From assembly GCA_902525735.1 (NCBI GenBank), contig CABZIF010000001.1, forward strand, positions 258,813 to 322,812: DNA of 64,000 nucleotides, read 5' to 3'. The position numbers were made by a program, and so were the translations under genes. This DNA is from an uncultured SAR86 cluster bacterium. Its GTDB lineage: Bacteria > Pseudomonadota > Gammaproteobacteria > Magnimaribacterales > AG-339-G14. The notes beneath the pieces were generated by a model. It was not told where the DNA came from and ran no database searches. It was given only the letters and a program-made list of their open reading frames with translations. Positions 45,105 to 64,000 of this stretch are shown here, one piece after another (positions within the stretch are counted from its first letter, which is position 1; the number at the start of each line of letters is the position of its first letter).

Positions 45105-45107
45105 TAT

Positions 45108-46356: not shown

Positions 46357-46358
46357 AA

Positions 46359-47033: not shown

Positions 47034-48406
47034 AACAAGAAATAACAAGGTTTGCACCAAGCCCAACCGGACACTTACATTTGGGTGGCGCAAGAACAGC
47101 TTTATTTTCATGGTTATTTGCTAAAAAAAATAAAGGCAAATTTTTATTAAGATTTGAGGACACTGATAAAGAAAGGTCTAAAAAAGAATATGAACAATCA
47201 ATTATTTCTAGTTTGGCTTGGCTTGGTATAAAGCCTGATGAAAATCCTATTTTTCAAAGTAAGAATATTGAATTACATCGCACAACAGCGCTAAGCCTTC
47301 TCGAATCAGGAAATGCTTATTCATGTGATTGTTCGCCCGAGCAATTAAACGAGATGAGAAAAAAGCAAATAGAACAAAAAATGCAACCAAGATACGATGG
47401 TCTCAACAGAGATAAAAATCTTCCGCATAAAGATGGAAATGTCATTAGATTTAAAATGCCTATTCAAGGAAAAACTTCCTTTCAAGATAAAATTTTAGGA
47501 ACTATTTCTGTTAATAATAAAGAATTAGATGACTTTATTATTCTTAGAGGAGATGGAAGTCCAACTTATAATTTTTCTGCGGCAATCGATGATCAAGAAA
47601 TGAAAATAACAACTGTTATTAGAGGAGATGACCATATCACGAACACTCTGAAACAAATTAATATATTTAAATCTTTAGAACAGCCCATTCCAAATTATGC
47701 TCATTTACCTATGGTGTTATCAAATACAGGAAAAAGACTTTCAAAAAGAGATGGAGCTGTAGATCTTTTGGAATATAAAAAATTAGGATATTTAAAGGAA
47801 GCCTTAATAAATTATTTAGTTAAATTAGGTTGGACATATTCAAATCAAGAAATTTTTTCTAAAGAAGAATTATTGAGCTTGTTTACATTGGAGGCAGTAA
47901 ATTCTTCACCCGCAAAATTTTCTGAAGAATTAATAACTTTTTACAACAATCACTATATCAATTCAATACAAGTAGAGGATCTTTATCAGTTGATTATTAA
48001 AGAGTGCGACGTTCCTTATGAAATTGACTCTAATATTCACTACTTAGAAATCTTGAATCTTATAAGAGAAGGCTCCAAAACTTTATTAGATCTAATTAAT
48101 CAAATGCAGTTTTTTTACGAAGTTCCACAATACGAAGAAAGACATAAAGAATCTGTTCAGGCAAACATTGAAGTAATTTCTGTCTTTAAAGAAAACATTA
48201 ATGCGCTCGATTTTAGTGATTTAAAAATTTTGGAAAATAATCTAAAAGAATTTTTATCTTCGAACGATTTAAAATTTCCTCAACTAGGCAAACCCTTAAG
48301 ATTAATTTTAGCTGGAAGAGAAAATGCTCCATCTATTTCTCAATTATTATTTTTCTTAGGCTATGAAGAATCGTTAAACAGAATTAACTTATTTCTAACC
48401 AAATAA
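47030..48406 (+). CDS. gltX: Glutamate--tRNA ligase
   Basis: 458 aa with a TTG start. Motifs '[18 protein letters not shown]' (HIGH) and 'RLSKRDG' (KMSKS). Confidence 0.93.
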
Positions 48407-48419
48407 CGGTAAACTACCT

Positions 48420-48605
48420 TTGATGATTGATAAAAAACTTTTAGATATTTTGGTCTGTCCTGTTTCAAAAGACAATCTCATTCAGATTGGCGACGAGCTG
48501 ATCTCCAAGAAAGGAATGCTAGCCTTTCCTGTAAGAGACGGTATACCAGTCATGCTTGAAAACGAAGCAAGAAAACTTAAACCCGAAGATATTAAAGATC
48601 TCTAG
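48420..48605 (+). CDS. Trm112/YcaR-family small protein
   Basis: About 60 aa. '[14 protein letters not shown]...[11 protein letters not shown]'. The start is probably the ATG at 48423. Confidence 0.8.
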
Positions 48606-49894
48606 TCTTCTGTTTGCGCTAAATCTCTCTTTCCTTGAGCACTCGCCATACTTGCATGATTTAGAATATTCCTTCCCATAGAAGAAGACTGCTTTAAAGA
48701 AAATTCTCTATATATTTTAGCTCTAGCGTGATGCATTTGATCGTTATTATTATCTGCATGAAAAGCAGTTTCGATTAATTGAGCTGCAACTTTTGTATTG
48801 CCTTTATCAAGGTATTCCAAAGCTTTTAAAATAATATTATCTATACCGCTTGAAAGCTCGACCCAAGCCAAAGCTTCTTCTTTTCTGGGGGCTGGAAGAA
48901 GTCTATCGTATTCCCCATCCCACCATCCTCCGTATCTTCTCCAAATCATTCTTATTAAAAACTGAGGGTCATCGTAGATTGGCGTTAACCAAGGTAACTC
49001 CATTAAATCATTTGGAATCTCAACTTCATGTAAAACCTGATTGAGACTTTTGCCTTGATTCATAAGTTTTAAAGTTTGATCTTCAATAGTTCTTAGAAAT
49101 TTTGAGGTTGTTTCTAAAGCTTTTTTAATTCTTTTTTTACCTAGAATAGGAAAACCATGACCAGGTAAAAAAATCTCACAGTCTAATTTCAGCATCTCAT
49201 CTAGGGCATCTGCCCAATCAGAAATATATCTTTGTACTTTTTGTGGATTTCCTCCATTCGGCACAGCCCAAATAAAAAGATCACCTGGTGCAATTAACTT
49301 TTCTTCTGGAACATGTATCCATGTGTGGTCATCTGTTTCTCCTCGAGCATGATAAAGATTGAATGTTAAATCTCCACATTTAAAAGATATATTATGTTTG
49401 TAAGTTACATCTGGAAATCTATATTCGGTGGGCCATTTAAAATGTTCAACATCAATTGCAAATTGACGCCTATTGATGGCAGTATTCCAATCATTAGTTT
49501 TAATATATCTATTAAAATGATCAGGCATTAATTCATGACCATAAACAATTGGTTTTGAGATACCCATTTTTTTATTTTCTTCATCAAAGTGTTTTACCGC
49601 AAATATATGATCAACATGATGATGAGTAAAAATAGCTGCCTTTACCGAAGTATCTGGACGCCACTTTTTAATTTCAGCATAAGTTGTCTCTATATCAAGT
49701 TGACTACCTGCATCAATCATTACTAAACCATCTCCAGTATCTAAAGTGTAATGACCAGCTATACCTTTTATACCTAGGATATTATTTTTAATTTCGGTCG
49801 AGCCAGAATAAAACATGTGGACAGGATGATGTTCAAATTGAAGATCAATTTCGCCATTCCAAGCCAATTCTGCAAGTTCAAGTAAATCTTTCAT
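48602..49894 (-). CDS. MBL-fold hydrolase, alkyl/aryl-sulfatase-like (no SCP2 tail)
   Basis: 430 aa. Metallo-beta-lactamase motif '[10 protein letters not shown]', followed by a helical region resembling the alkyl-sulfatase dimerisation domain. Confidence 0.7.
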
Positions 49895-49964
49895 TTCTTC
49901 TCCATTTCAATTCCTTTTAATTCTAATCCATATTTGATTAGAATGATTCTAGAGAGGGGGATAT

Positions 49965-51089
49965 ATGAGTACAATTAAACCTTTAGATGGAATAAAAGTT
50001 ATTGAAATTTCAACTATTATTACTGCGTCTTTATCAGCGATGATGCTTTCCGATCAAGGAGCTGAGGTAATAAAAATTGAACAAACTGGATTTGGAGATC
50101 CTTTAAGATACTTAGGCACTCAAAAAGGAGGGATTTCAGCTATCTTTGCGAATACAAACAGAGGGAAAAAATCTGTTGAGTTAGATTTAAAAACTGAATC
50201 TGATCTAGAACGAGCAAAAAAATTGATTAGTGAGGCCGACGTACTTATTAATAATTTTAGACCTGGCGTTATGGATTCGCTTGGACTTGGAAAAGACGAT
50301 TGTAAAACCTTAAATAAAAATTTAATTTATGTGGCAATAACAGGTTTTGGTAAAGAGGGTCTTTATGCCAATGCACCAGCTTATGATCACGTAGTTCAGG
50401 CAATGTCAGGTTCAACTGCTATTCAAGCTGACGAAGATAAACCTAAATATATAAAAACTTTATTATGCGATAAAATCACTGCCTATACCGCTACTCAGTC
50501 TATATGTTCAGCTTTGTTGAAAAGAGAAAGAACTGGTGAGGCGGCATGTATTGATCTTTCAATGCTTGATTCAGCAATGTTTTTCTTTTGGCCAGACGGC
50601 ATGATGAATCAAACCCTTCTGGACGAAGATGTAGAAATATTGGCACCTTTGACGTCAAGTTACACTATGTACGAATGCAAGGACGGCGCAATATCTATTG
50701 CAGCTTTATTGGATAAACATTGGCATGGTATTTTTAGAGCAATAGATAAACCTGAACTTGTTGAAGATTCAAAATTTAGTAATACGGCTGAAAGAAGTAA
50801 AAATGTTCATGAGTTGTATGAATACCTTACTCTATTCAAAAACTATACAGTGGATGATATGTTTAAGAGATTATCTGAGAACGATGTGCCATGTTCAAAA
50901 AACTTAACTTTAGAAGAAGTTATTACCAATCCGCAAGTTACAGACAACAAACTTGTTAAGGAAAAAGAAACAACACATCAAGGCAAGCTGCGAATGATAA
51001 GATATCCTGCATTATTCGATGATGAAAAATACATTAACGATAAACCTGCGCCAAAACTTGGCGAAGATAATGAAATCTTATTAAAATAA
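49965..51089 (+). CDS. Family III CoA-transferase (CaiB/BaiF)
   Basis: 374 aa. 'IKVIEISTIITASLSAMMLSDQGAEVIKIE' and 'NNFRPGVMDSLGLG'. Confidence 0.85.
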   Translation: MSTIKPLDGIKVIEISTIITASLSAMMLSDQGAEVIKIEQTGFGDPLRYLGTQKGGISAIFANTNRGKKSVELDLKTESDLERAKKLISEADVLINNFRPGVMDSLGLGKDDCKTLNKNLIYVAITGFGKEGLYANAPAYDHVVQAMSGSTAIQADEDKPKYIKTLLCDKITAYTATQSICSALLKRERTGEAACIDLSMLDSAMFFFWPDGMMNQTLLDEDVEILAPLTSSYTMYECKDGAISIAALLDKHWHGIFRAIDKPELVEDSKFSNTAERSKNVHELYEYLTLFKNYTVDDMFKRLSENDVPCSKNLTLEEVITNPQVTDNKLVKEKETTHQGKLRMIRYPALFDDEKYINDKPAPKLGEDNEILLK

Positions 51090-51093
51090 AATT

Positions 51094-51924
51094 ATGAAAA
51101 TCAAAGTTCCAAATAATAAAGCTCAACTTGGCGTAGTAATAAGTGATCTAAATTTGAGTGGAGAGTTCTCAGATGATCTAATAGCAGAGATTAGAAAATC
51201 ATGGACTGACTATGGAGTTGCAATTTTTCCAGATCAAAAACTTACGCATGAAAATTTTGAAAAGTTTTCTTTGTTATTTGGTAATTTTGGTGATGATCCA
51301 TATTTAAAGTCTCTCGATGATAGACCCAATATTGTTGAAGTAAAAAGGGCAGCTAATGAAAAAGCTCCTCCTTTTGGGGGTTCTTGGCATTCTGATTGGT
51401 CCTTTCAAAAGACTCCTCCTTCTGCCACTTTACTGCATTCAAAAATAGTACCACCGCAAGGTGGAGACACATTGTTCGCAAATACCCAGTTAGCTTATGA
51501 AGAATTAGATCAAGAAACTAAGGATAAAATTGAAAATTTGGAAGTAATCCATAGTGCAGGCTTACCTTACGCAGACGATGGATTTTATGCAACAGAAAAA
51601 GTGGAGAGGGCAATGGATATATTGCCATCAAAAAAAGCGAAAGAAACCCAATTACATCCCCTAGTAAAAACTCATGCAGAAACAAAGAGAAAATGTCTAT
51701 TTATAAACCCAGTTTATACAGTAGCCATTAACAATTTCTCAGAAGAGGAATCCTTTTTATTATTATCTTCTCTTTATGAGCATATGACTCAAGAAAAATA
51801 TGTTTATCGCCATAAATGGTCAAAAGATATGCTTTTAATGTGGGATAACAGAACTGTTGTTCACGCTGCTGACGGAGGTTATGACGGTTATGAAAGGTTA
51901 ATGCACAGAATAACAGTTAATTAA
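51094..51924 (+). CDS. TauD/TfdA-family Fe(II)/2-oxoglutarate dioxygenase
   Basis: 276 aa. 'WHSDWSF' (HxD), 'GGDTLFAN' and 'WDNRTVVH'. Confidence 0.85.
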   Translation: MKIKVPNNKAQLGVVISDLNLSGEFSDDLIAEIRKSWTDYGVAIFPDQKLTHENFEKFSLLFGNFGDDPYLKSLDDRPNIVEVKRAANEKAPPFGGSWHSDWSFQKTPPSATLLHSKIVPPQGGDTLFANTQLAYEELDQETKDKIENLEVIHSAGLPYADDGFYATEKVERAMDILPSKKAKETQLHPLVKTHAETKRKCLFINPVYTVAINNFSEEESFLLLSSLYEHMTQEKYVYRHKWSKDMLLMWDNRTVVHAADGGYDGYERLMHRITVN

Positions 51925-52359
51925 CTACAATTCCGAAAGATATTTATCTAATCTATCTTTATTAGTTACAAAGGAGTTTTTCAGTTGATTGGCTTGAGCT
52001 CTAACTTTTTCCAAATTATTTGAATTGCCTACTTGAATCACTCCGATCATAGCCATCATTAAATGAGGCGTACACTGGTAAACATAAACACCTTCTGTAT
52101 TAAGTGTAACGCTTATATCCTGACTCATTGCACCCATCCAAGTGTCACCGCCTTCAGGAATCATATTGCCTATCGATTCAGAATTATGGGCCATATCGAC
52201 AGATTTAAAGTGAACAGTGTCACCCTTTGATATTTTTAGGACAGGAGGGTCAAAAACCATCACACCGCTTGGTCCTTGGTTTAGCATTCTTACTTCATAA
52301 TCAGCAGAAAAATAGAAGTTGGAAAAAATAAACAAAAATAAATAACTTAAAAATTTCAT
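51925..52359 (-). CDS. Pseudoazurin-type blue copper protein
   Basis: 144 aa with a signal peptide. Cu ligand context 'YVYQCTPHLMMAMIGVIQV' (C-x-P-H-x3-M) and an upstream His. Confidence 0.85.
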   Translation of the reverse strand: MKFLSYLFLFIFSNFYFSADYEVRMLNQGPSGVMVFDPPVLKISKGDTVHFKSVDMAHNSESIGNMIPEGGDTWMGAMSQDISVTLNTEGVYVYQCTPHLMMAMIGVIQVGNSNNLEKVRAQANQLKNSFVTNKDRLDKYLSEL

Positions 52360-52525
52360 TAAAGAATTTTACATTTTTAAAATACTCAAATCTTAAAAAA
52401 TGAATAAATTATCTTTAAAGTTCTATCCAAATAACAAACTTAAATGATCTACAAATAAAGAATTTATCATTTAAAAGAAAATATGATTGAATTACATAAA
52501 TTCATTAGCAAAAAGGAGAGTAAAT

Positions 52526-52933
52526 ATGAATTTCTTAAAAGTAGTAACATTAATTTTGGTAACTTTTTCAGTAAGTAGTGCTTTTTCACAAAATGTGGGA
52601 TCGACAACAGTTCCAGCAGAGGCTTGGTTTTGTGAAATTAAAGAAGGCTATACGATGGACGATATTAGAGAAGTTTCAAAAGGTGTAGAAGCGTTTTCAA
52701 AAAAAACAGGTATGAAGGGATCACAATTTATATTTACAACTTTTATGGGAGAAATGAATCCTAATGCTTTTGTTTTAATGACAGTTTGGCCAAATTTTGA
52801 AATGATGGGACAAGGTTTTCAAAATTTTTTCACCGAAGGAACAGGTGATGATACTTTTGCAAAGTGGAATGAGTCTACAAACTGCATGCAGAGAAATCTT
52901 TTAACGGTAGAAAATACTTGGACTATAGAATAA
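52526..52933 (+). CDS. Hypothetical secreted protein
   Basis: Start moved to 'MNFLKVVTLILVTFSVSSAFSQ', directly after the RBS AAAGGAG. No recognisable family. Confidence 0.6.
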   Translation: MNFLKVVTLILVTFSVSSAFSQNVGSTTVPAEAWFCEIKEGYTMDDIREVSKGVEAFSKKTGMKGSQFIFTTFMGEMNPNAFVLMTVWPNFEMMGQGFQNFFTEGTGDDTFAKWNESTNCMQRNLLTVENTWTIE

Positions 52934-52951
52934 TTTTAAAAGGAGAAAAAA

Positions 52952-54130
52952 ATGGGTAATGCTTATATTGTTGGAGCGGTAAGGACTCCGGGTGGAAAAA
53001 AAGATGGAAAGCTTAAAAACTGGCATCCTTCAGATTTGGGAGCTTTAGTTTTAGATGAGCTAGTCGAAAGAACTGGCGCGAAAGGAGAAATGATTGATGA
53101 TGTAATTTTTGGTTGTGTTAGTCAATCAGGAGCGCAAGCAGGCAATGTCGCTAGAAATGCTGTGTTAAGTTCAAAACTTCCAGAATCAGTGCCAGGAACT
53201 TCTGTGGATAGACAGTGTGGTTCTTCGCAACAAGCAATTCATTTTGCTGCCCAAGCTGTGATGTCTGAAACACAAGATATTGTTATTGCTGGTGGTGTAG
53301 AAGTTATGAGTCAAGTTCCTATTGGCTCTAATATTATTGATAGTTTTAAAGAAGGACATGGCCAGCCATTTAACGGCAAAGGCATGATGGAAAGATATCC
53401 TGGAGTGCAATTCAGTCAGTTCGCAGGTGCCGAGATGATGGCAAAAAGATGGAACTTCTCACGCGAAGATTTAGATGCTTTTGCATTTGCAAGTCATTCG
53501 AAAGCTATAAATGCAACCGAAGCTGGTTACTTTGATAAAGAGATAGTCCCAGTAGAAGGAGATTTGCCCTCTGGTGAAAAGGAAATGGTTTCTATAGATG
53601 AAGGTATTAGATTTGATGCTTCTTTAGAAAGTTTATCAGGACTTAAAACTTTATCCGATGATGGTGTTTTAACTGCAGGTAGTTCAAGTCAAATTTGTGA
53701 TGGTGCGGCAGCAATAATGATTGTCAATGATTCTGGTTTAGAGAAATTAGGACTTAAACCAAGAGCAAAAATTATTTCATTGGCGCTTGCTGGAGATGAC
53801 CCAGTTATTATGCTGACTGGTCCAATTCCAGCATCTAAGACTGTGTTAGAAAAAGCTGACCTTTCGATAAATGATATTGATATTTATGAAGTAAACGAAG
53901 CATTTGCGCCAGTACCTTTAGCTTGGGCGCATGAGCTTAAAGCTGATAAAGAAAAACTTAATGTCAATGGCGGAGCAATGGCTTTAGGACATCCATTAGG
54001 TGGCACAGGAGCCAAGTTAATGACTACTTTGTTACATGAGTTAGAAAGAAGAGAGGGTAAGTATGGTCTCCAAGCTATCTGTGAAGGTGGCGGAACAGCT
54101 AATGCAATGATTATAGAAAGATTGAATTAA
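52952..54130 (+). CDS. Acetyl-CoA C-acyltransferase (thiolase)
   Basis: 392 aa. Motifs 'VDRQCGSSQQAI' (Cys), 'NGGAMALGHPLGGTG' and 'CEGGGTANA'. Confidence 0.93.
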   Translation: MGNAYIVGAVRTPGGKKDGKLKNWHPSDLGALVLDELVERTGAKGEMIDDVIFGCVSQSGAQAGNVARNAVLSSKLPESVPGTSVDRQCGSSQQAIHFAAQAVMSETQDIVIAGGVEVMSQVPIGSNIIDSFKEGHGQPFNGKGMMERYPGVQFSQFAGAEMMAKRWNFSREDLDAFAFASHSKAINATEAGYFDKEIVPVEGDLPSGEKEMVSIDEGIRFDASLESLSGLKTLSDDGVLTAGSSSQICDGAAAIMIVNDSGLEKLGLKPRAKIISLALAGDDPVIMLTGPIPASKTVLEKADLSINDIDIYEVNEAFAPVPLAWAHELKADKEKLNVNGGAMALGHPLGGTGAKLMTTLLHELERREGKYGLQAICEGGGTANAMIIERLN

Positions 54131-54304
54131 ATGGAAAACAAACACTGGTGGGAAAAAATACCAGATGGTGGTGTTTATGAAGATGCTAATTCTGGCATAT
54201 ACTTTTTTAAAGAAGATGGAAAATTAAAAACATCTTATGAATTCCATATCGGCGCAGGCGGAGATCCAGAAGTATTTCAAGCCTGGAGTAAGGCAAAGAG
54301 CTGA
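54131..54304 (+). CDS. Small hypothetical protein (57 aa), not in ORF track
   Basis: The ATG follows the thiolase stop with no gap. Hand translation gives MENKHWWEKIPDGGVYEDANSGIYFFKEDGKLKTSYEFHIGAGGDPEVFQAWSKAKS*. An uninterrupted 57-codon frame is notable in AT-rich DNA. Confidence 0.45.
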   Translation: MENKHWWEKIPDGGVYEDANSGIYFFKEDGKLKTSYEFHIGAGGDPEVFQAWSKAKS

Positions 54305-54309
54305 TTTTA

Positions 54310-54382
<73 letters not shown>

Positions 54383-54389
54383 CAAGATT

Positions 54390-54548
54390 TTAATAAACTA
54401 AAAATATTATTAACAACAGTGCAGAGATTAAAGATGCAGGGAATAAATACTTTAAAGTTTTAAAATTTAGTTCATCATCATTTTTAAATAAATTTATAAA
54501 AAGAGCTATCAGAATTGTGCCACCAACAAAATAAACTAATGCAGTCAT
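54390..54548 (-). CDS. Small two-TM hypothetical protein (52 aa), not in ORF track
   Basis: Hand translation gives MTALVYFVGGTILIALFINLFKNDDELNFKTLKYLFPASLISALLLIIFLVY*. It starts 8 nt after the stop of the 490-aa gene and ends 8 nt from tRNA-Ala. It has two clear hydrophobic helices. Confidence 0.4.
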   Translation of the reverse strand: MTALVYFVGGTILIALFINLFKNDDELNFKTLKYLFPASLISALLLIIFLVY

Positions 54549-54556
54549 TGGTTTTC

Positions 54557-56029
54557 TTATGCTTGAGTAAGCATCTTGGCTCTTTCTGATAATGCTGTAG
54601 CTTTATTAGAAAGCGAAGAAAGTAATGCCGTTTTATCATTGAGCTCTTTTTCTATTTTTTCTTCAACTATAATGGCCTCTTCTTCTTTTTCACTTATAGC
54701 ATCGAATTTGTCTTGAAAATCTGATAATTCAATAATATCTATATTTAATTCTCCTTTCTCAAATTGTTTGTTTAAAGCATTAATTGATTCCTTTAAATGT
54801 TCTTCTAAGATTGTTGAAAAAGTTTTATGTATAGCTAATTCATTAAGAAGCTTTTCTCTAAGAAGATTTTCTTTTTTTTGTTTTCTAAACAATAAGTAAA
54901 TCCCCAAAGATAAAAATGGTAGACCCAGAGCTAATAATGAGCGATCTTCAAGTCCCGTAATTACCCAACCTCCTCCAAAAAAGATTGCTAAGCCATTGCC
55001 CCAACCTAAACCTGTTATTTTACCGGGCACATTCTTATTTAATTTAGCCAAGGTGTCTTCTTTGTAAGCAAAATTAATTAACTCAAATTTATTTTTTTTT
55101 GAGTTAAAATGAATATCTGCATGTTTACCGTTAAATAAATTTTCAATAAAACTTTTATCCTTGTAGCTTGAAATTAATTTTGAACTGTAAGCTTCTTCGA
55201 CTTTTATTTGCTTAAAGCCAGTTTGTTCATTAATCATTTGTCTTGCAAATTCATCTTGATATTTTAATTTTTCATAAAGTTTTTTATTCTCCCAGCTAGT
55301 ACCAATTTTTTTTTCTTCATCAGATAAACTTTCTGCAATTTCTTCAATTTTTTTAATTAGTTCTTTTTGAGTTTTAATTTTAAATTCTGCATAAATCATA
55401 TCTGAAACTTCTTTCTCTCTTTTGGATTCATTTCTCTTTGTTTCTAAGTCCTTTTTAGATTCTTCTAATTTATCGAAAAGTTCTTTTAAAGGAATGTTGG
55501 AACTTACTTTTTCATAAAAAGAATTAGCGCTCTTAGATTTAATCTCATCGAAAGACGTTCTCAAAGGAGGAAAAATTTCCGATTGTTTTTTTTCATACTT
55601 TTCTTTATCAATTTGAATACTTTTAGTTATTTCACTTGCTTTATCAAACTGAGATTTGATATCAGGAATTGCTGTATCTTTTAAATATTCTATGTCTGCC
55701 AAACAAAGTTCACATTCTTTTAGTAAAGCGTTTTTTTCATAATACAGAGCTTCTTTTTCGCGAGTGCCAATAGATTTTTCACCAGAACAATCTTCGCACA
55801 TCCAAACTGTTCTATAGGTTGTGTGTGTTCTCTTTCGAGAAGTTAAAACAGATCTTTTTAAAGCTTTTTGAGAAGTTTCAAAACCAAGAATTGAGCCAAT
55901 TACTTCTTTTCCTCCAACAGTATTTCGTGACGTCGCTTTAATAGCCTTTTTGGCCCTAACCATAAAATTAGCAGGGGCTTGGGCGCCACATATGTTGCAA
56001 GTAGTTAATCTAAACTTCTTTTTTGCCAT
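54557..56029 (-). CDS. Hypothetical zinc-ribbon / coiled-coil / TM-hairpin protein
   Basis: 490 aa. CxxC dyads at C11/C14 and C78/C81 (plus C106/C109). Long Lys/Glu-rich heptad-like regions. Gly-rich hydrophobic hairpin 'ITGLGWGNGLAIFFGGGWVITGL-EDR-SLLALGLPFLSLGIYLLF' (about aa 338-382), followed by a C-terminal coiled coil. I recognise no family. Confidence 0.7.
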   Translation of the reverse strand: MAKKKFRLTTCNICGAQAPANFMVRAKKAIKATSRNTVGGKEVIGSILGFETSQKALKRSVLTSRKRTHTTYRTVWMCEDCSGEKSIGTREKEALYYEKNALLKECELCLADIEYLKDTAIPDIKSQFDKASEITKSIQIDKEKYEKKQSEIFPPLRTSFDEIKSKSANSFYEKVSSNIPLKELFDKLEESKKDLETKRNESKREKEVSDMIYAEFKIKTQKELIKKIEEIAESLSDEEKKIGTSWENKKLYEKLKYQDEFARQMINEQTGFKQIKVEEAYSSKLISSYKDKSFIENLFNGKHADIHFNSKKNKFELINFAYKEDTLAKLNKNVPGKITGLGWGNGLAIFFGGGWVITGLEDRSLLALGLPFLSLGIYLLFRKQKKENLLREKLLNELAIHKTFSTILEEHLKESINALNKQFEKGELNIDIIELSDFQDKFDAISEKEEEAIIVEEKIEKELNDKTALLSSLSNKATALSERAKMLTQA

Positions 56030-56067
56030 CAGAACTTATATTATAGAAAGAAAATTTATTAATCAAA

Positions 56068-58227
56068 ATGACTGGAATAGTTGATGAGGCTCTAAAACAA
56101 GATGGGGATGATTCATTAAATATAGGAAACTATATTAAAGCCTTATTAAGTTTTATTGAAAATACCGCAACACCGATGACTATCGGTATTCAAGGAGAAT
56201 GGGGCAGTGGAAAAACTTCATTGCTTAATCAAATTTGGAATGGCCTTGAAAAAAGAGACTCTGAAAACCAAGACGTAAGATATAAGCAAATATGGATAAA
56301 TGCTTGGGAACATTCTTTACTGTGTTCACCAGAAGAGTGTTTGATAAAGATAATCAATGAAATAATTTCTGAACTTGTAGCTGCAGATACTCAAAAAACA
56401 AAAGCTGAAAAATTAACCAGTGGCATTAATAAATTAGCAAAAGGTGCAGCAAGAATTGGTGGGGCCGTCGCACTTGGAATGGCAGGAAAAGATATTGCTG
56501 ATGATATATTTGATCAACATGAAAACTCAATTAAGCAGTTACGACAAGATTTAAAAAAACTTACAAATGAAATTAAAGGGCTTGAAACCAATCCCTTTGA
56601 TAAATTTATAATCTACGTTGACGATCTGGATAGAATTGACCCACCTGATGCAGTAAGAATATTAGAATTATTAAAAAATATATTCAATCTGGAAGATTGT
56701 ATATTTTTATTGGCCATTGACTATCAAGTAGTAGTAAAAGGTCTTGAAGCGAAATTTGGAAAACAAACGCCTGAAAATGAATGGGAGTTTCGAGCCTATT
56801 TCGATAAAATTATTCAACTTCCTTTTAAAATGCCGATGTCAAATTACGACATAGGAAATTATGTACTTGAATTACTATCGACCATCGATTTTTATTCAGG
56901 CGATGAAGAATTGGATGAAGAATTAATTAAAAACTTTGTAGAGCTTTCTATTACAGGGAACCCTAGATCTATAAAAAGATTAATAAATTCCTTGTCTCTG
57001 ATTAAACTTTTTAATTCATTATCTGACGATTTAGACTCAAATTTTTTAAAAGATAAAAATGGCGCGACCATAATGTTTGCAATGGTCTGTTTACAAACTG
57101 CGCATCCAGATATTTATGATTTGCTTTCTCAAAATCCTGATTTTCAAAAATGGGATGATGAATTAGCCTATAAAGTTACTCAAGGAAAAGAAAAACTAGA
57201 AGAAAATTATGAATTGAATTACAACCAAGCCACTAAACAAGGTGAAGATTTTGATGAAGAATGGGAAAAAATACTTTTTAAAGTTTGTTATTTGAATCCA
57301 AGATCACGTGCTAAGGCAACAAATATATCTAGATTTTTAACTATTTTAATCGATGAATTCAAAGCAGAAAAAAATTCTGAGGAGTTAACAAATCTAATTT
57401 CTAATGCTCTTGGACAATCAGCTATTACAAGCGTGACAACAACTGAAAATCCAAATATAAGACCTGCTAAAGGTTCTTATAAACCTTTTTATAATGAAGG
57501 TTTTGATGACTGGCTTGACCGTAAAATAGAAGATATTTCTATTAGAGCCAAGAAATCTAAAGAAGAATTTTCTATACCGGTTGAAGTCTTTGAGAAACTA
57601 AAATCTTTTGTCGATATTTTAAAAAATGATTTTGGAGCGTGCGATGCTAATGAAAATCCAGATAACGATCTGACATTGCATTACTCTGGAAACTTGACAT
57701 TAAAATACAAAGGAAAAAAGACTTTTAGTTTTTGGGTTGGAACGTCTAATCCAGAAAATAAAAAACGATCTAGAAAAGGTGTTGCTGGAGGAGATTTAAA
57801 TGACCCTCAAAGCTGGGTAATGAGTTCTGAAATAAGTAAACATCCTAAATTTGAAAATAAGCCTCTATTCATAGAAGAGTTAAATATTAAATTTAATCAA
57901 TACAAGCCAGGATATAGAGTGAAAAGTATAAATCCAAGAGAAATAGTCTTACCTGGCGCAGGTGCGCCAGACATTGCTCATATGGGAGTTATTTCAATTT
58001 TAGATTATCCTCATGATTATTTTAAGTTTTTAGTTGAGACTAGTATAGATGCTAGAAAAAATCATAAAGACGAGTTGTTTAATAGGTCTAAAATGAAAGA
58101 AATTGAGGATATTTTTTTTAAGGCTGATGAAGATTCAGCTGAATTTAAAAAGGCGCATGATTTCATTCAAAATTGGAATGCAGATGAAAATGTTTTTACT
58201 ATTAAGGATTATAAAAAAGGGGTATAG
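56068..58227 (+). CDS. KAP-family P-loop NTPase with uncharacterised C-terminal half
   Basis: 719 aa. Walker A 'GIQGEWGSGKTSLLN', then the KAP-typical 'INAWEHS' and Walker B 'FIIYVDDLDRIDP'. No convincing TM insertion in the P-loop domain. About 270 C-terminal residues have no recognisable motif. Confidence 0.82.
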   Translation: MTGIVDEALKQDGDDSLNIGNYIKALLSFIENTATPMTIGIQGEWGSGKTSLLNQIWNGLEKRDSENQDVRYKQIWINAWEHSLLCSPEECLIKIINEIISELVAADTQKTKAEKLTSGINKLAKGAARIGGAVALGMAGKDIADDIFDQHENSIKQLRQDLKKLTNEIKGLETNPFDKFIIYVDDLDRIDPPDAVRILELLKNIFNLEDCIFLLAIDYQVVVKGLEAKFGKQTPENEWEFRAYFDKIIQLPFKMPMSNYDIGNYVLELLSTIDFYSGDEELDEELIKNFVELSITGNPRSIKRLINSLSLIKLFNSLSDDLDSNFLKDKNGATIMFAMVCLQTAHPDIYDLLSQNPDFQKWDDELAYKVTQGKEKLEENYELNYNQATKQGEDFDEEWEKILFKVCYLNPRSRAKATNISRFLTILIDEFKAEKNSEELTNLISNALGQSAITSVTTTENPNIRPAKGSYKPFYNEGFDDWLDRKIEDISIRAKKSKEEFSIPVEVFEKLKSFVDILKNDFGACDANENPDNDLTLHYSGNLTLKYKGKKTFSFWVGTSNPENKKRSRKGVAGGDLNDPQSWVMSSEISKHPKFENKPLFIEELNIKFNQYKPGYRVKSINPREIVLPGAGAPDIAHMGVISILDYPHDYFKFLVETSIDARKNHKDELFNRSKMKEIEDIFFKADEDSAEFKKAHDFIQNWNADENVFTIKDYKKGV

Positions 58228-58290
58228 CTCATTTGGATGAACACTTGCAAACTACGCAAGAAGTTCAAGGTTCGACCCTGCTTAACTCCA
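58219..58290 (+). pseudogene. Degenerate copy of tRNA-Ala (non-foldable)
   Basis: GGGGTATAGCTCATTTGGATGAACACTTGCAAACTACGCAAGAAGTTCAAGGTTCGACCCTGCTTAACTCCA aligns end-to-end with tRNA-Ala at 54310. The GGGG/TATAGCTCA, the anticodon stem CTTGC/GCAAG, GGTTC and CTCCA are all identical. The anticodon loop is AAACTAC (no U33) and the T and acceptor stems are broken. It overlaps the KAP stop codon. Confidence 0.6.
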
Positions 58291-58354
58291 TATGTTTATT
58301 GTAAAAGCCTTATTTTTTTTATAAATAAGTAGTCGTTAATACAAAAAAATTGAT

Positions 58355-60121
58355 ATGAATGATCAGTTAACAATAACCTTAATTTTGTTTGTTCTTTTAT
58401 TTTTCTTTGTATGGGGAAGATGGAGATATGACGCAATAGCTTTAATATTTCTGTCTTTATTTGTTTTATTTGGGTTTATTGAACCAAATGATGCTTTTTC
58501 TGGATTTGCTCATCCTGCAGTTGTAACTGTCGCATTGGTTTTATTGATTAGTAAAGGTTTAGAAAAATCAGGATTTATTCTAATTATTGAAAATAAAATT
58601 CAAAAAATTGCTCAAAATCAAACTCAATTTATGATTGTTTTAACTCTTCTGGCTGCGGTGCTTTCATCGTTTATGAACAATATTGGCGCAATGGCTATGC
58701 TTCTTCCTATTACTTTGGGAATTTGTCAAAAAATGGCTTGGAATCCATCTAGGTTTTTGATGCCATTAGCCTTTGCTTCCATTTTAGGTGGAATGAATAC
58801 TAAAATTGGGACACCTCCAAACATAATCATCTCTGAATTTAGAAGTGAATATGCAGATCAATCTTTTAGTTTCTTCGATTTTTCTTTTATTGGATTGCCT
58901 TTAACTATTTTTGGAATTATTTTTATTTCATTTTTAGGATGGAGATTAATTGCTTTAAGACCAGTTAATTCCTTAGATAATCCATTAATTAAAATTGATG
59001 ATTATCTAACTGAAATGACTATCAAACCAAATAGTCCACTCATCGATATGAGGGCTCAAGATTTTAGAAGTAAACTAGATACAGATACAGCTGTAATTGG
59101 TCAGATAGACTCAACCGAAAAAAAAGTTGAGTTGCATGGAAATTTTAAACTCTACGAGGGACAAATCCTTATTCTAAAAATAAACCCTTCTTCTCTTGCA
59201 GACTTGCAACAAGAATATGGATTAGACGTAGATTCAGAAAACGAATTAACAAAAATAAAAGATTTAGGCAGTATCGAAGCAATAATTACACCAAAATCTA
59301 GACTTATCGGAAGAAAAAATAGTTATTTTAAAAGGCTTGTTGGCGGTGGTTTCTCTTTACTAGGTTTATGGAGAAGGGGATTAAAATATAGATTTAGATT
59401 GGCAAATGAAAAATTCAGATCAGGTGATGTTTTGTTGATAGCAAATAGAGGTAATAAAGATTCTATTGCGGAAAGATTGGAGCTGGCTGGATTGTTGCCT
59501 TTATGGCAAAGAGATTTTGATATTGTTAGAGATTCCTCAAAAGTATTATTTGCTTTTCTAGTATTTATTTTTTCTCTATTTCTGATTATTTTTAATTTTC
59601 TTCCAATTTTAGTGGCATTTTTATTGTGCGTAATTGCTTTTGTAGGTGGAAGGTTGTTAACAGGAGAAAGCGTTTATAGGCACATAGACTGGCCAGTTGT
59701 CACATTACTAGCTGCGATGATTCCAATAGGTAATACACTCACTGAGTATGAAATTACATCTGATTTTGCTTTGTTCCTCGCTAGCTATTCTCAATCTTTA
59801 GATTTTGTTTGGATGATAATTATAATCATGATTATAACAATGCTTCTTTCAGACGTTATTAATAACGCTGCTACAGCTGTAATAATGGGCCCGTTAGCTG
59901 CTTCATTAGCAGTTCAAATTAATCAGCCTGTAGAACCCTTTTTAATGGCAGTTGCAATTGGTGCAAGTTGTGCTTTTCTGTCTCCAATTGGGCATCAATG
60001 CAACACTCTAGTCATGGGACCGGGAAATTATAAATTCGGAGATTATTGGAAAATGGGGCTTCCCTTGGAGATATTAATTATTTTTGTAAGTGTTCCGTTA
60101 ATTGTTTTTTACTGGACTTGA
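58355..60121 (+). CDS. SLC13/DASS-family permease with central TrkA-C (RCK_C)-like domains
   Basis: 588 aa. Polytopic N- and C-terminal halves with 'GTPPN' and 'SPIGHQCN' hairpin motifs. They are separated by a soluble region of about 180 aa resembling two TrkA-C domains. Confidence 0.78.
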   Translation: MNDQLTITLILFVLLFFFVWGRWRYDAIALIFLSLFVLFGFIEPNDAFSGFAHPAVVTVALVLLISKGLEKSGFILIIENKIQKIAQNQTQFMIVLTLLAAVLSSFMNNIGAMAMLLPITLGICQKMAWNPSRFLMPLAFASILGGMNTKIGTPPNIIISEFRSEYADQSFSFFDFSFIGLPLTIFGIIFISFLGWRLIALRPVNSLDNPLIKIDDYLTEMTIKPNSPLIDMRAQDFRSKLDTDTAVIGQIDSTEKKVELHGNFKLYEGQILILKINPSSLADLQQEYGLDVDSENELTKIKDLGSIEAIITPKSRLIGRKNSYFKRLVGGGFSLLGLWRRGLKYRFRLANEKFRSGDVLLIANRGNKDSIAERLELAGLLPLWQRDFDIVRDSSKVLFAFLVFIFSLFLIIFNFLPILVAFLLCVIAFVGGRLLTGESVYRHIDWPVVTLLAAMIPIGNTLTEYEITSDFALFLASYSQSLDFVWMIIIIMIITMLLSDVINNAATAVIMGPLAASLAVQINQPVEPFLMAVAIGASCAFLSPIGHQCNTLVMGPGNYKFGDYWKMGLPLEILIIFVSVPLIVFYWT

Positions 60122-60257
60122 AGAGCATTTCTTGAATTCATTGTCTTCCTAAAGGAGTTAGCTTAATTGACATCTCTATTGACTCATCAGCTTCCAATTC
60201 ATCAAGCTTCTGTGAAAGTCAGGATTTCTATGCTCTGTAGCCTTTGGTGACGCTTAG

Positions 60258-60584
60258 TTATCTGGTCAAAATCTCCATTGCTTTTTTATCGTCTACTACA
60301 GGGACTATTGCAGACTCGCAGACTTCGTTCCATCCATTAGCGAATTCAATTACAAGAGTTGGATCATCAGCCTCAACTATAACTATCCCGTCGCCAGTCG
60401 TAAGGTCATGATACCTAGCAAGCTTTTTAGAGCCCTCTAGGAATTGACCATCAAGCTCATCTAACGTCATGGTAGAAAAAATTTTATATGCCTCTTGATT
60501 GCATTTGAAATCAATCATATAGACAGCCGCATGTGAGATATTACAAAACATTAACATAACCCCTAAAACAAAGTATTTTTTCAT
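60258..60584 (-). CDS. Small secreted protein, DUF3303-like
   Basis: 108 aa with a signal peptide. 'IVIVEADDPTLVIEFANGWNEVCESAIVPVVDDKKA' resembles the remembered DUF3303 C-terminal pattern. Confidence 0.5.
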   Translation of the reverse strand: MKKYFVLGVMLMFCNISHAAVYMIDFKCNQEAYKIFSTMTLDELDGQFLEGSKKLARYHDLTTGDGIVIVEADDPTLVIEFANGWNEVCESAIVPVVDDKKAMEILTR

Positions 60585-60749
60585 TTTATGTCTCCAATAG
60601 ATTTAATAATTTATTATATTAAATTATTATCAATCCACCGTCACTTCTAACTCTTTTTTATTTTTTTCTTTGTTACTTTCTTATTCATTTTTTGGGTTCA
60701 ACAAGAATTTATGCAATGAAATTTAATTTTTTTAATTAATGAATAATTA

Positions 60750-61358
60750 TTATTTTAAGCTTTCAACGAATTTTTTAACTTTTTTCATGTGTTTATCAAA
60801 TTCTTTATCGCTCATATTAGGTAATATAGAAAAAAATCTTAAATATTTAGTTTTTAAACCGCCTAATTGAAATACAGTTTTTTTTAATCTTCTATAAGGA
60901 ATATTCTTAAAGAATGAAAAATTAAAATAACTTATTTTTGGTCCTCCATATGTGATCGAAACAATTCCTAACTTGTTTTTCATCGCTCCAGCAACGGGAT
61001 AGCCATAATTTTTAAAGAATTTACTGTTAGGTAATATAGATTTATAGGTGAAGAACCAAGTGGGATGCAGCACCCAATCTATCCAATTTTCTACAATCAC
61101 ATTCATCCTTAGATTATGACAAGCCCCCATTAAAAACATTACATCTGAATTTTCTAGTCTTTTTCTATACTCCAAAACCAATTTTGGGGGAGGATTAATA
61201 TCGCTTCTGTAAAATGGCAATTGTTCTTCCTCTTCAAAAAGATTTATTAGATCTATTTCGTGACCTAATCTTTTTGCTTCTTTTATAAAAGTATCACGTA
61301 TAGCCGAATTGAATGAACTTACGGTATTATAGTGGCCAAAAATCAAGCAAATCTTCAT
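60750..61358 (-). CDS. Flavodoxin-like-fold NAD(P)H (quinone) oxidoreductase family protein
   Basis: 202 aa. 'MKICLIFGHYNTVSSFNSAIRD...' N-terminus typical of the Flavodoxin_2/NQO-like family. Confidence 0.7.
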   Translation of the reverse strand: MKICLIFGHYNTVSSFNSAIRDTFIKEAKRLGHEIDLINLFEEEEQLPFYRSDINPPPKLVLEYRKRLENSDVMFLMGACHNLRMNVIVENWIDWVLHPTWFFTYKSILPNSKFFKNYGYPVAGAMKNKLGIVSITYGGPKISYFNFSFFKNIPYRRLKKTVFQLGGLKTKYLRFFSILPNMSDKEFDKHMKKVKKFVESLK

Positions 61359-61380
61359 ATATTTTCACAAAATAAAAAAT

Positions 61381-61399
61381 AATAGATTAACTCATTATC
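61381..61399. promoter_or_regulatory. Weak candidate Fur box upstream of DoxX-hmuTUV
   Basis: AATAGATTAACTCATTATC matches 12 of 19 positions of the GATAATGATAATCATTATC consensus (the 3' half is perfect). It lies about 80 nt upstream of the operon start. AT-rich background makes this weak. Confidence 0.25.
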
Positions 61400-61479
61400 C
61401 TTTTACTAAGCTAATAACCTTTACTAATCTTATAAGACAACTGCACAAACTTTTTTATATTATTTCAATTGAGAGATAT

Positions 61480-61896
61480 ATGAAAATACCAAAATTGCCA
61501 GCTCCACTAGCAACCTTTTTGTTAAGAATACCCTTATCTGTATTATTTTTTCAACAAGGGCTAAGCAAATTTCCTGTGAATGAAGCTACAGCAGAAGCAT
61601 TTGGCTTGCCTTTTATTGTGTGGTGGTTTGTTGCCTATGGTGAAGTTGGATCGGCAATAGGACTGATTTTAGGAGGAATCGTAGGTATTATTTTTACAAA
61701 AGGACTTGTCAGTGAACTTGCAGACCTTTTGACACGTTTTAGCGGAATTACGATGACGTGTGTTATCACAGGGATAATTTGGCTAATGATGCCAAATAGT
61801 CTTTTTGACGTAATTACCAAAGATTACTTGCATGTAAGTTTATATGTTGGGGGACTTTATTTTGCACTTAGGGGGAATTCAAAATATGGTTTTTAA
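61480..61896 (+). CDS. DoxX-family membrane protein
   Basis: 138 aa with 4 TM. 'FFQQGLSKF' DoxX-like N-terminus. Confidence 0.65.
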   Translation: MKIPKLPAPLATFLLRIPLSVLFFQQGLSKFPVNEATAEAFGLPFIVWWFVAYGEVGSAIGLILGGIVGIIFTKGLVSELADLLTRFSGITMTCVITGIIWLMMPNSLFDVITKDYLHVSLYVGGLYFALRGNSKYGF

Positions 61897-62740
61897 AAAA
61901 GCTGCATTCTTTTTGTTAATTGCAGCTAATTATTTACCTTCGGAATGTGACAAATCAAAAAATCCAAATAAGATAGTTATAGCTGGAGGATCGTTGACAG
62001 AAATTGTTTACGATTTAAAGGAAGAAGAAAAAATACTTGCTGTTGATGTAACCTCAAATTTTCCTCCAGAAGTCAAAGATTTCCCTTCAGTTGGTTATGT
62101 TAGAGCTCTCTCAACAGAAGGACTTCTATCTTTAGGACCAACTTTGATCTTAGGAGAGGAGGACATGGGCCCACCTTTAGTATTAGATCAGTTGAAAATT
62201 GTTGGAGTCGATATAAGAGTAATTAAAGATGATTTTTCATCTTCGAGTATATTGTCAAAAGTCGAATGTATTTCAGAAATCATAGGAGCCAAGAAAATAA
62301 ATACAAAACGTCTAATTAATAATTTGAAAGAAAAAATAAATGTGTTGGAAACAAATATAAAAAAAAATAATAGAGCTATGACCATTCTTTTGATTCTTGG
62401 CCTTCAAGGAACTTCACCTATTGCTGCGGGACACTCGACTTCTGGTCACGGATTTATCAACCTTCTTGGGGCTAAAAATATTATGGAAGACGTGGAGGGC
62501 TGGAAACCTATTAGTTCTGAATCAATTCTAATGAAAAATCCTGATATTATTCTTGTCACTAAAAGAGGTATTAGATCCTTCAAAAACGATGAAGCATTCA
62601 GCAATCATTCGTCAATTAAATTTACAAATGCAGCACAAAATAAAAATGTTTTCTCTTTAGATGGTATGTCTATGCTAGGTTTTGGTCCTAGAACCATAGA
62701 AACTGCAATTTTTGTAAGCGAAAATCTGATAAATCAATGA
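61886..62740 (+). CDS. hmuT: Haemin ABC transporter periplasmic binding protein
   Basis: Start moved to 'MVFKKAAFFLLIAAN' (signal peptide). 'KIVIAGGSLTEIVYDL' and 'ILAVDVTSNFP' fit class-8 binding proteins. It is followed by FecCD permease and ATPase genes. Confidence 0.8.
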   Translation: MVFKKAAFFLLIAANYLPSECDKSKNPNKIVIAGGSLTEIVYDLKEEEKILAVDVTSNFPPEVKDFPSVGYVRALSTEGLLSLGPTLILGEEDMGPPLVLDQLKIVGVDIRVIKDDFSSSSILSKVECISEIIGAKKINTKRLINNLKEKINVLETNIKKNNRAMTILLILGLQGTSPIAAGHSTSGHGFINLLGAKNIMEDVEGWKPISSESILMKNPDIILVTKRGIRSFKNDEAFSNHSSIKFTNAAQNKNVFSLDGMSMLGFGPRTIETAIFVSENLINQ

Positions 62741-63774
62741 ATGTTTTTCTATCATATTTCAATTTTTTAAATTATTTAAGTAAATTTCAAAAATTCATTT
62801 TTTATTTTTTAATAATTTTATTTTTTATTTTCTTTTTGGTTTCTATATCTCTCGGCAGCTTCAATTTTTTCTTATTTGATTTGCTTACATATCAACCTGA
62901 TTCTCTCAATAAGATTGTGCTTTATGAAATAAGAATTCCAAGAGTTTTATTAGCAGGATTTGTAGGAGCAAGTTTGGGAATTTCAGGTGCATCTCTTCAA
63001 GGTCTTTTTCGAAATCCGTTAGCAGATCCAGGATTGATAGGAGTTTCTGCTGGGGCAGCATTAGGTGCTGCATTAGTAATAGTATTAGGATCTAATTTCT
63101 TTTCAGAATATTTTTTTAATACTTTTGCCTTGCCTTTTTCTGCGATATCTGGGGCAGCTTTAGTTATCACATTGCTGTATTTTTTTACAAGAGGATTTGG
63201 TTATGAAGGAATTACTTATATGCTGCTGATTGGAATTGCTATAAATGCTCTTGCTTCTGTAGGTATCGGAATTCTTACATTTATTAGCTCTGATTCTGAA
63301 TTGAGAGGCCTTACTTTTTGGACAATGGGAAGCTTTGGTGGAGCATCGTGGCAAATAATTATGCCGGCTTTGGTTATAATAATTTTTACAATTTTATGGA
63401 TGATTCCGTCTGCAAGAAAATTGGATCTACTTCAATTGGGTGAACCCGAAGCCTATCGATTAGGTATCGATATACAAAAATTAAAGTTCAAAGTAATAAT
63501 TTCAAGCGCAATCATTGTAGGAGTTAGCGTAGCCTTGTCTGGAATGATTGGATTTGTTGGTCTAGTCGTTCCTCATCTTGTAAGACTTATTGGCGGTGTG
63601 AATCACAGCTACTTGTTGCCAGCTTCAGCTTTTTTTGGGGGCTCTTTGATGATGAGTGCAGATCTATTATCAAGAATTTTAATTTCACCCGCTGAGGTGC
63701 CAGTTGGTCTATTAACAAGTGCGTTAGGCGCTCCTTTCTTTTTATGGCTTATTTTTAATTCAAGAAAAATATGA
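62737..63774 (+). CDS. hmuU: Haemin ABC transporter permease (FecCD family)
   Basis: 345 aa. 'RIPRVLLAGFVGASLGISGASLQGLFRNPLADPGLIGVSAGA' is the FecCD signature. Confidence 0.88.
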   Translation: MNVFLSYFNFLNYLSKFQKFIFYFLIILFFIFFLVSISLGSFNFFLFDLLTYQPDSLNKIVLYEIRIPRVLLAGFVGASLGISGASLQGLFRNPLADPGLIGVSAGAALGAALVIVLGSNFFSEYFFNTFALPFSAISGAALVITLLYFFTRGFGYEGITYMLLIGIAINALASVGIGILTFISSDSELRGLTFWTMGSFGGASWQIIMPALVIIIFTILWMIPSARKLDLLQLGEPEAYRLGIDIQKLKFKVIISSAIIVGVSVALSGMIGFVGLVVPHLVRLIGGVNHSYLLPASAFFGGSLMMSADLLSRILISPAEVPVGLLTSALGAPFFLWLIFNSRKI

Positions 63775-64000
63775 GTATTAATATTTCTTCTCTCACTTAT
63801 GAAGTAGATAATAAAAAAATTCTCAATGAAATTTCACTAAAAATCGAGCTAGGAGAAATATTATGTGTCCTTGGGCCAAATGGATCAGGTAAATCAACTT
63901 TAGTAAATTTAATTTCAGGCAATTTCGAAGCAACGAAGGGAGATATATTTTTTGACAAAGTTGATCTAAAAAAAATTTCGATAGAGGACAGAGCTTTTAC
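63771..64000 (+). CDS. hmuV: Haemin ABC transporter ATP-binding protein, 3'-truncated by window edge
   Basis: ATGA start/stop overlap with the permease gene. Translation 'MSINISSLTYEVDNKKILNEISLKIELGEILCVLGPNGSGKSTL' contains a Walker A. Confidence 0.85.
   Translation, partial: MSINISSLTYEVDNKKILNEISLKIELGEILCVLGPNGSGKSTLVNLISGNFEATKGDIFFDKVDLKKISIEDRAF

Follow-up and report, generated by a model that had tools for sequence, protein, structure and literature searches.

The present analysis concerns a stretch of DNA (positions 54,383–58,290) within a segment of 64,000 nucleotides, hereafter the window, from an uncultured SAR86 cluster bacterium. The stretch carries a gene for a KAP-family P-loop nucleoside triphosphatase (NTPase) and, in divergent orientation, a gene for a zinc-ribbon membrane protein of 490 amino acids (aa), hereafter the partner, which is followed by a small open reading frame (ORF), S52. 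In the initial annotation, made from the sequence alone, this gene set was proposed to be a tRNA-bounded, defence-type module. The features of the locus are as follows.

54310–54383 (+): tRNA-Ala(GGC), found by ARAGORN and by the Rfam tRNA model (65.3 bits); its 3′ end marks the left border of a strain-variable island, where synteny breaks
54390–54548 (−): S52, a 52-aa protein with two transmembrane (TM) segments (ORF), directly downstream of the partner gene and co-directional with it
54557–56029 (−): partner protein, 490 aa (ORF, alignments, AlphaFold2 model)
56030–56067: divergent intergenic region of 38 bp between the start codons of the partner and KAP, containing the conserved core TTATATTATA
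56068–58227 (+): KAP-family P-loop NTPase, 719 aa (Pfam PF07693, PADLOC, AlphaFold2 model)
58219–58291 (+): decayed tRNA-like relic, closest to tRNA-Ala, overlapping the last three KAP codons (G, V, stop)
58355–60121 (+): CitMHS/DASS-type permease with a TrkA_C domain (Pfam), island cargo outside the module

The tRNA gene upstream of the stretch was confirmed, and the three ORFs (52, 490 and 719 aa) were recovered on the strands and at the coordinates first reported. According to its hydropathy profile, S52 has two hydrophobic segments. In almost every locus, a homologue of S52 comes next after the partner gene: the copy in a close relative (L001) is 98% identical, and a locus of a second gammaproteobacterial lineage (L009) encodes a 51-aa homologue with the conserved motif INLFKNDDELN. 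Neither S52 nor the partner has a match in Pfam, PADLOC, NCBIfam or PHROGs. The conserved core of the partner/KAP spacer was identified in an alignment of seven loci, and a scan for promoter and terminator consensus sequences revealed no enrichment over shuffled sequence. The G+C content of the stretch is slightly low (28–33% versus 32–39% in the flanks), and no recombinase or integrase was found among the ORFs of the region, either in the ORF list or by Pfam; the host-like composition and missing integrase noted initially were thereby borne out.

Island borders and the tRNA-like relic

The empty site was located via the thiolase cluster of relatives; a scan of the genome collection for empty sites with the DASS permease returned merely relatives at ≤42% identity. 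Four more distant relatives with the thiolase cluster (L082, L083, L086 and L087) are collinear with window positions 44501–54383, the collinearity ending at the 3′ end of the tRNA. Beyond 54383, these relatives carry genes for a short-chain dehydrogenase (adh_short) and a DUF1295 protein, and S52, the partner, KAP and the permease are absent there. When L001 (92–93% nucleotide identity) was compared with L082, the extra block was found to extend from the tRNA 3′ end to the stop codon of the DASS permease, and collinearity of the two returns at DUF1295. Since the block absent from L082 runs to that stop codon, the permease is island cargo and not a core flank. Past position 60122, even L001 and the window cease to be collinear, so the variable region reaches at least the window end. 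The genes found there (60123–64000) encode a DUF3303 protein, a flavodoxin-like reductase, DoxX and a periplasmic binding protein. The stretch belongs to a strain-variable island, of which it forms the part nearest to the tRNA. Of the initial picture of a tRNA-bounded cassette between core genes, the left border stands, as the break lies exactly at the tRNA 3′ end, but on the right the permease is cargo and the tRNA-like relic is internal.

The relic (pseudo-tRNA) aligns end to end with tRNA-Ala, the two having 51 of 73 bases in common (70% identity), and the global alignment score is 27, against a background of −16 ± 5 obtained when every 73-nt window in the 64 kb was scored. It is nearer to tRNA-Ala than to the five other tRNAs of the window. 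ARAGORN made no call at this position, no Rfam match was obtained even at E ≤ 10, and the minimum-energy fold is not a cloverleaf, in agreement with the earlier description of a full-length but non-foldable copy. The 5′ end of the pseudo-tRNA encodes the final G, V and stop codons of KAP. An independent contig (L071), whose KAP is 93% identical, has the relic at the same position; because only 61 of the 73 bases are identical between the two copies, the pseudo-tRNA is drifting. It is absent in the sister haplotypes L001, L045 and L072, where a small ORF and/or an Ion_trans gene is found instead. The pseudo-tRNA is an internal junction of the island, tied to KAP allele A only. A role as a functional tRNA or tRNA-like element was rejected, given the silence of ARAGORN and Rfam, the broken stems and the 12/73 differences to the L071 copy, which come without compensatory changes.

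As in tRNA-associated genomic islands, the variable DNA starts exactly at a tRNA 3′ end (homology to L082, L086 and L087 stops at 54383, and the comparison of L001 with L082 agrees), and a tRNA-derived repeat lies downstream. However, neither an integrase nor bounding direct att repeats are present; the sole tRNA-derived repeat is a decayed, 70%-identical, full-length internal copy and not an exact partial att site, and the composition is near that of the host.

An additional small ORF of 57 aa (window 54131–54304 (+)) starts right after the thiolase stop codon and is conserved in every relative, also where the site is empty. In the second lineage, a homologue of 67 aa bearing the motif GAGGDPEVF is situated at a distance of about 1 kb from the module (L009 5319–5522 (−)), and another ORF of this type was found at L067 2946–3113.

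The KAP NTPase and known defence proteins

The product of the 719-aa ORF was identified as a KAP P-loop NTPase at the outset, and the Pfam search agrees: residues 21–312 match KAP_NTPase (PF07693) with 126 bits (E-value, 2e-36; cut-off, 20 bits). The protein consists of an NTPase domain (residues 1–320), a helical domain (330–455), a linker and a hypervariable alpha/beta C-terminal domain (479–719). It has the Walker A motif GEWGSGKT and the Walker B motif IYVDDLDR, and GEWGSGKT and VDDLDR are invariant in 34 orthologues. The AlphaFold2 model (predicted local distance difference test score, pLDDT, 76.7) comprises a P-loop domain, a helical domain, a disordered linker and a confidently predicted alpha/beta C-terminal domain. 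Foldseek comparison with the PDB placed RdrA of RADAR first (E-value, 1e-6), followed by ORC/Cdc6, NLR NB-ARC and BrxC; these matches suggest a ring-forming switch NTPase. No match in Pfam, PDB or NCBIfam was obtained for the helical and C-terminal domains.

Aravind et al. reportedly described, in 2004, classical prokaryotic KAP proteins as having two or four TM helices inserted in the NTPase domain. Helices within this domain have been described also for Tmn (10.1101/2022.08.21.504612). The KAP protein of the window departs from this plan. No TM segment is predicted (the 19-residue Kyte–Doolittle maximum is 1.51, with a threshold of 1.6), and the short insert at residues 110–153 is of low confidence in the model.

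KAP has more than 4,000 homologues, and full-length orthologues at 45–60% identity are found in Gammaproteobacteria, Flavobacteriales, Marinimicrobia and Woeseiaceae. In the alignment of 34 orthologues, residues 1–470 are highly conserved and residues 480–719 poorly so. The ratio of nonsynonymous to synonymous substitution rates (dN/dS) is 0.10 overall, 0.02 in the NTPase domain and 0.24 in the C-terminal domain. Neighbours of the orthologues include a methyl-directed restriction endonuclease (1e-80), PD-T4-3 (7e-35), a Cas4-like nuclease, and methyltransferase, WYL and RmuC genes. A 585-aa KAP relative with 41% identity over the engine was also noticed on an IMG/VR contig (L080), 2.6 kb from a tyrosine integrase (3221–4978 and 7618–8787).

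The pairing was initially not recognised as a named system; its KAP side now has precedents. All of the PADLOC matches of KAP, namely PifA (1.4e-33), PDC-S20 (6e-28) and QatA (6e-23), fall on the NTPase domain. According to the literature, KAP NTPases fused to unknown C-terminal regions protect Enterococcus faecalis from phage, with both the Walker B motif and the C-terminal region being needed; this antiphage demonstration dates from 2026 (PMC13552941). Tmn, too, is a KAP-type defence protein (10.1101/2022.08.21.504612). Compared by architecture, EF_KAP and the KAP of the window both begin with a KAP NTPase domain whose Walker A and B motifs are intact; approximately 300–400 residues without a recognisable domain come next. 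In both cases the C-terminal region varies between homologues and the context is of an accessory or defence type. However, EF_KAP is a single-gene defence with two TM helices, the first at the N terminus and the second within the NTPase domain, whereas the KAP of the window has no predicted TM segment and adjoins a separate membrane-anchored zinc-ribbon protein.

PifA, responsible for T7 exclusion by the F plasmid, and PDC-S20 resemble KAP in the NTPase domain and in length (~720 aa), but only KAP residues 6–312 match the PifA profile (positions 8–316 of 720), the helical and C-terminal domains being unrelated. A tblastn search of 72,556 plasmids with KAP gave coverage of ≤57% and identity of ≤32%. 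Identity with PifA was rejected because there is no full-length homology. QatA of QatABCD likewise has a KAP-type NTPase domain; the NCBIfam QatA model (NF041923) scores 95 bits against a cut-off of 600, and QatB, QatC and QatD are not nearby, the neighbours being the partner, S52, the tRNA and the permease, so this candidate was discarded as well. RdrA is the top structural match for the NTPase and helical domains (8hr8; E-value, 1e-6; ~520 aligned columns). With RdrA, STAND and ORC proteins, however, the TM-scores are about 0.3 and the identity is 11–15%, the C-terminal domain is a different one, and the RdrB deaminase partner is missing; with similarity at the fold level only and no deaminase gene in the region, an assignment to RdrA of RADAR was not retained. 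KAP is therefore a member of the KAP superfamily that is distinct from PifA, QatA and RdrA.

The partner protein and the recurrence of the pair

The partner has an N-terminal CxxC...CxxC zinc ribbon with a conserved insert of ~40 residues (residues 1–90, the N-domain) and a long helical/coiled-coil region; next come a beta-hairpin, a TM hairpin (about residues 343–385) and a C-terminal coiled coil. In the AlphaFold2 model (pLDDT 71.6), the strands of the zinc ribbon enclose the conserved insert, which is of low confidence (residues 32–70). About 120 homologues of the partner were found, and these form two tiers (78–99% and about 40% identity). Across the loci, identity amounts to 82–100% in the N-domain and 40–60% in the rest of the protein; dN/dS is 0.21–0.31 overall and 0–0.06 in the N-domain, in comparisons that span KAP-bearing and KAP-less strains.

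A word-indexed search with the N-domain alignment yielded 10 fragments only, and an exhaustive profile search of 1.84 billion representative proteins was needed to delineate the family. This search revealed 263 clusters, 171 of them at E ≤ 1e-10. The domain is nearly always N-terminal. Among the listed representatives, 131 have a length of at least 105 aa, and a TM segment is predicted in 119 of these. The C-terminal parts of the family include TerB, SPOR, LprI, SAM, PAN and peptidoglycan-binding domains. T4-like viral contigs encode short forms of 112–125 aa that consist of the N-domain and one TM segment, with profile E-values of 1e-24 to 4e-20 at the scale of the whole library. Two of these genes adjoin uvsY and uvsW (L077 1649–2026, L078 1622–1969), and a third, on a 146-kb contig, adjoins uvsX and gene 41 (L079 5968–6306). 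The presence of the N-domain in T4-like viral contigs links the partner family to phage–host interplay. Among 50,697 records of isolated phage genomes, tblastn gave no match to the partner or to the short phage forms, and no PHROG family corresponds to them. By its profile, the N-domain represents an unannotated family.

Some members of the family have peculiar features. Some partner alleles (P0011 and P0114; alignment A2, columns 201–234) have an internal insertion of 34 residues (ATSRNTVSGKEVVGGKEIIGSLLGNEASQRALERA), which is a duplicate of the conserved insert from the N-terminal zinc-ribbon domain. In L092 (1944–2342), the gene for a small CxxC protein with TM segments overlaps the stop codon of a 536-aa TerB-type partner homologue; it runs off the contig end. 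In L093 (5564–9600; GCA_049889535.1), from an unrelated genome, a low-GC islet (27–39% versus 44–48% in the flanks) lies directly after tRNA-Thr(TGT). It encodes a partner homologue of 393 aa and an Ion_trans protein and also has small TM ORFs, whereas KAP is absent.

The pair was found to recur beyond the lineage of the window. In a second gammaproteobacterial lineage (L009–L015, L051, L054, L055, L057 and L063), the layout is that of the window: a 474-aa partner (~40% identical) is followed by the 51-aa S52 homologue, and a KAP orthologue (62% identical, or 56–76% across the loci) is located divergently at a distance of 47 bp. An extra 56-aa ORF with a single TM segment (S56) follows KAP, and the outer flanks differ, with DsbB and PolA on one side and WYL, RmuC, methyltransferase and SNF2 helicase genes on the other. 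The 5′ ends of the partner and KAP genes are very conserved around the shared spacer of 38–47 bp, and the 3′ parts are fast-evolving. In Flavobacteriales (L019–21, L073 and L074), the arrangement is a different one: a 501-aa partner homologue lies just upstream of a KAP orthologue (49–55% identical) on the same strand, sometimes with an Ion_trans gene between them. This homologue shares the N-domain (BLASTP, 2e-13) and contains two TM segments; at its C terminus, a TerB domain scores 27.8 bits, which exceeds the gathering threshold. The adjacency of KAP to the same N-domain across phyla argues for a functional link.

Population variation and possible functions

The partner-centred scan of metagenome contigs, an unbiased sample, yielded 32 loci, 28 of which were scorable. 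Content at the locus varies among strains, in line with the initial interpretation, and at least four states were found at the window's own tRNA-Ala locus.

KAP allele A (window, L071, L049): KAP 93–94% identical to that of the window; pseudo-tRNA seen in the window and L071
KAP allele D (L072): KAP 59–63% identical, then an S56-like ORF and an Ion_trans gene
KAP stub (L001–L006, L045, L047): 51 codons, truncated just after Walker A, then Ion_trans
No island (L082-type, more distant relatives): adh_short and DUF1295 instead

In loci of the second lineage, KAP is often cleanly absent and S56 directly adjoins the partner (L053, L059, L062, L064–L066 and L075). The KAP allele clades A to D cut across both lineages and are incongruent with the partner alleles; between L009 and L063, for example, the KAPs are 94% identical and the partners only 61%. 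Ion_trans genes adjoin partner homologues in three contexts (L001 3640–4356, L045 and L072 258–971; L019 4839–5915 and L074; L093 8392–9168). That they form one orthologous set was considered and dismissed, the L001 and L019 products being barely similar (E-value, 0.007) and those of L093 and L001 32% identical; their position beside the partner homologues may be a coincidence or a loose functional link.

The partner and S52 constitute one operon, which encodes a membrane-anchored zinc-ribbon/coiled-coil protein and a 2-TM miniprotein, and the soluble, STAND-like KAP is transcribed divergently. With belief and doubt about evenly balanced, we propose that the stretch carries a membrane-associated conflict module, probably an anti-phage one. 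KAP fits the hallmarks of a defence gene as far as sequence comparison can tell, with its presence/absence and allele-replacement polymorphism, a conserved engine joined to a hypervariable C-terminal domain, and the defence neighbours of its orthologues. By analogy, the pattern also fits the antiphage KAP fusions (PMC13552941) and Tmn (10.1101/2022.08.21.504612). The module is probably a variant of a known anti-phage type and not a wholly new system; what is new is the partner family, the fact that T4-like phages have it too, and the natural polymorphism of the locus, which is well resolved.

In the proposed mechanism, KAP would act as both sensor and switch: an invader cue, recognised by the variable C-terminal domain, would lead to NTP-dependent oligomerisation as in RdrA or STAND proteins. 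In the most economical model, the partner would recruit KAP, which has no TM helices of its own, to the membrane in trans, with KAP docking on the near-invariant, presumably cytoplasmic zinc-ribbon domain of the partner. The output at the membrane could be permeabilisation, depolarisation or exclusion, effected by the TM hairpin of the partner, by the small TM proteins, or by the adjacent Ion_trans channel where present. Abortive infection through the membrane partner, as suggested initially, is an inference. The partner would also have a KAP-independent role, because it persists without KAP.

A number of observations weigh against this reading, and several of them count in favour of its main rival. 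The latter holds that KAP is a self-sufficient single-gene defence protein, like EF_KAP, PifA or Tmn, which lands repeatedly in a hot spot of recombination beside a lineage-conserved membrane protein gene, the partner and S52 being unrelated to it in function. KAP is present in 10 of the 28 scorable loci, and it is absent, reduced to the 51-codon stub or replaced in the remaining 18. The partner dN/dS is 0.23 in comparisons involving KAP-less strains; since purifying selection holds in these comparisons, the partner is likely to be functional without KAP. The slot between the partner and S56 may be empty or, in L061 (138–2225 (−)), occupied by the gene for an unrelated protein of 695 aa, which has several TM segments at its C terminus and matches no Pfam family. 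KAP orthologues in L016, L022 and L094 occur without the partner, beside a Cas4-like DUF2779 nuclease or other nuclease-like genes. Thus, the two genes do not always occur together, and of the initial proposal of a two-gene unit the recurrent neighbourhood stands, but the pair is not an obligate one. Moreover, the KAP and partner alleles are shuffled, and this free recombination argues against tight co-adaptation of the variable regions. Single-gene KAP defences, finally, are documented (PMC13552941).

Three further points tell against the proposed module. The fold search with the partner model gave generic coiled-coil matches only (Rad50, MukB and alpha-pore-forming toxins), all at E > 0.02, and no conclusion was drawn from the toxin resemblance. 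None of the PADLOC defence models matches the partner or the small ORFs. In addition, the two gammaproteobacterial loci may share one ancestral locus instead of being independent transfers, because a nearby small ORF of the 57-aa type is common to both, which leaves Flavobacteriales as the one clearly independent replicate. The Flavobacteriales case also counts against the single-gene rival, as a homologue sharing only the N-domain is again located beside KAP there, in another gene order (in tandem, with or without Ion_trans between). The joint conservation of the 5′ ends of both genes and of the 38–47-bp divergent spacer also speaks against it, and so does the KAP protein itself, which lacks the TM helices typical of bacterial KAPs and leaves a role for a membrane partner. 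We regard an independent, single-gene KAP as possible, if somewhat unlikely.

An extension of the conflict-module reading, which is speculative and rather unlikely, would have the N-domain define an undescribed family of membrane-tethered proteins at the phage–host interface. The long bacterial forms (coiled-coil or TerB) would be the stable core of small tRNA-associated islets, recruiting interchangeable KAP alleles and voltage-gated-type channels, and the 110–125-aa forms of T4-like phages, encoded beside uvsX, uvsY and uvsW, would act as mimics, docking on the target of the bacterial forms and so blocking or subverting the host module. If true, this would represent a new membrane-based immunity mechanism together with a phage counter-measure; the occurrence of the partner domain in small T4-like phage proteins offers a testable host–phage interaction. 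As the antiphage activity of KAP NTPases is a very recent finding, the locus provides a natural dissection of how they sense and act, in that a KAP minus the in-domain helices stands beside a separate membrane anchor with a nearly invariant, docking-type domain, and field populations hold swapped, truncated and deleted KAP alleles at one locus. The hosts, abundant and AT-rich marine bacteria that are uncultured, have so far yielded very few characterised defence systems.

It is improbable that the locus serves membrane or ion homeostasis and not defence, with the zinc-ribbon protein, the Ion_trans channel and KAP regulating ion flux or envelope stress. Eukaryotic Kidins220/ARMS has a channel-scaffolding role and TerB has links to stress, and such a function would be in keeping with the Ion_trans genes beside partner homologues in three separate contexts, with the TerB C-terminal domain of the flavobacterial partners and with the permease as the next gene of the window. 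It is at odds with the presence/absence and allele-replacement polymorphism of KAP and its hypervariable C-terminal domain, with the restriction and defence neighbours of KAP orthologues, with the distant relationship of the three Ion_trans proteins and with the domain homologues in lytic T4-like viral contigs. That the locus is what remains of a mobile element or prophage targeting tRNA genes, with the pseudo-tRNA as an old attachment scar and the genes as leftover cargo without joint function, is very unlikely: the synteny break exactly at the tRNA 3′ end, the tRNA-derived relic, the L093 islet right after tRNA-Thr and the KAP relative near an integrase on L080 would agree with it, but integrase and exact att repeats are absent, the relic is a full-length, 70%-identical copy that is internal to the island and missing from sister haplotypes, both large genes are intact and under purifying selection, and such a history would explain origin rather than function and is compatible with a conflict module.

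One variant of the locus was observed on a 670-kb long-read contig (L007 5700–8000), where the KAP gene beside the partner is broken into several short ORFs. These KAP fragments could be the result of pseudogenisation or of assembly frameshifts, the neighbouring methylase and HATPase genes being fragmented likewise.

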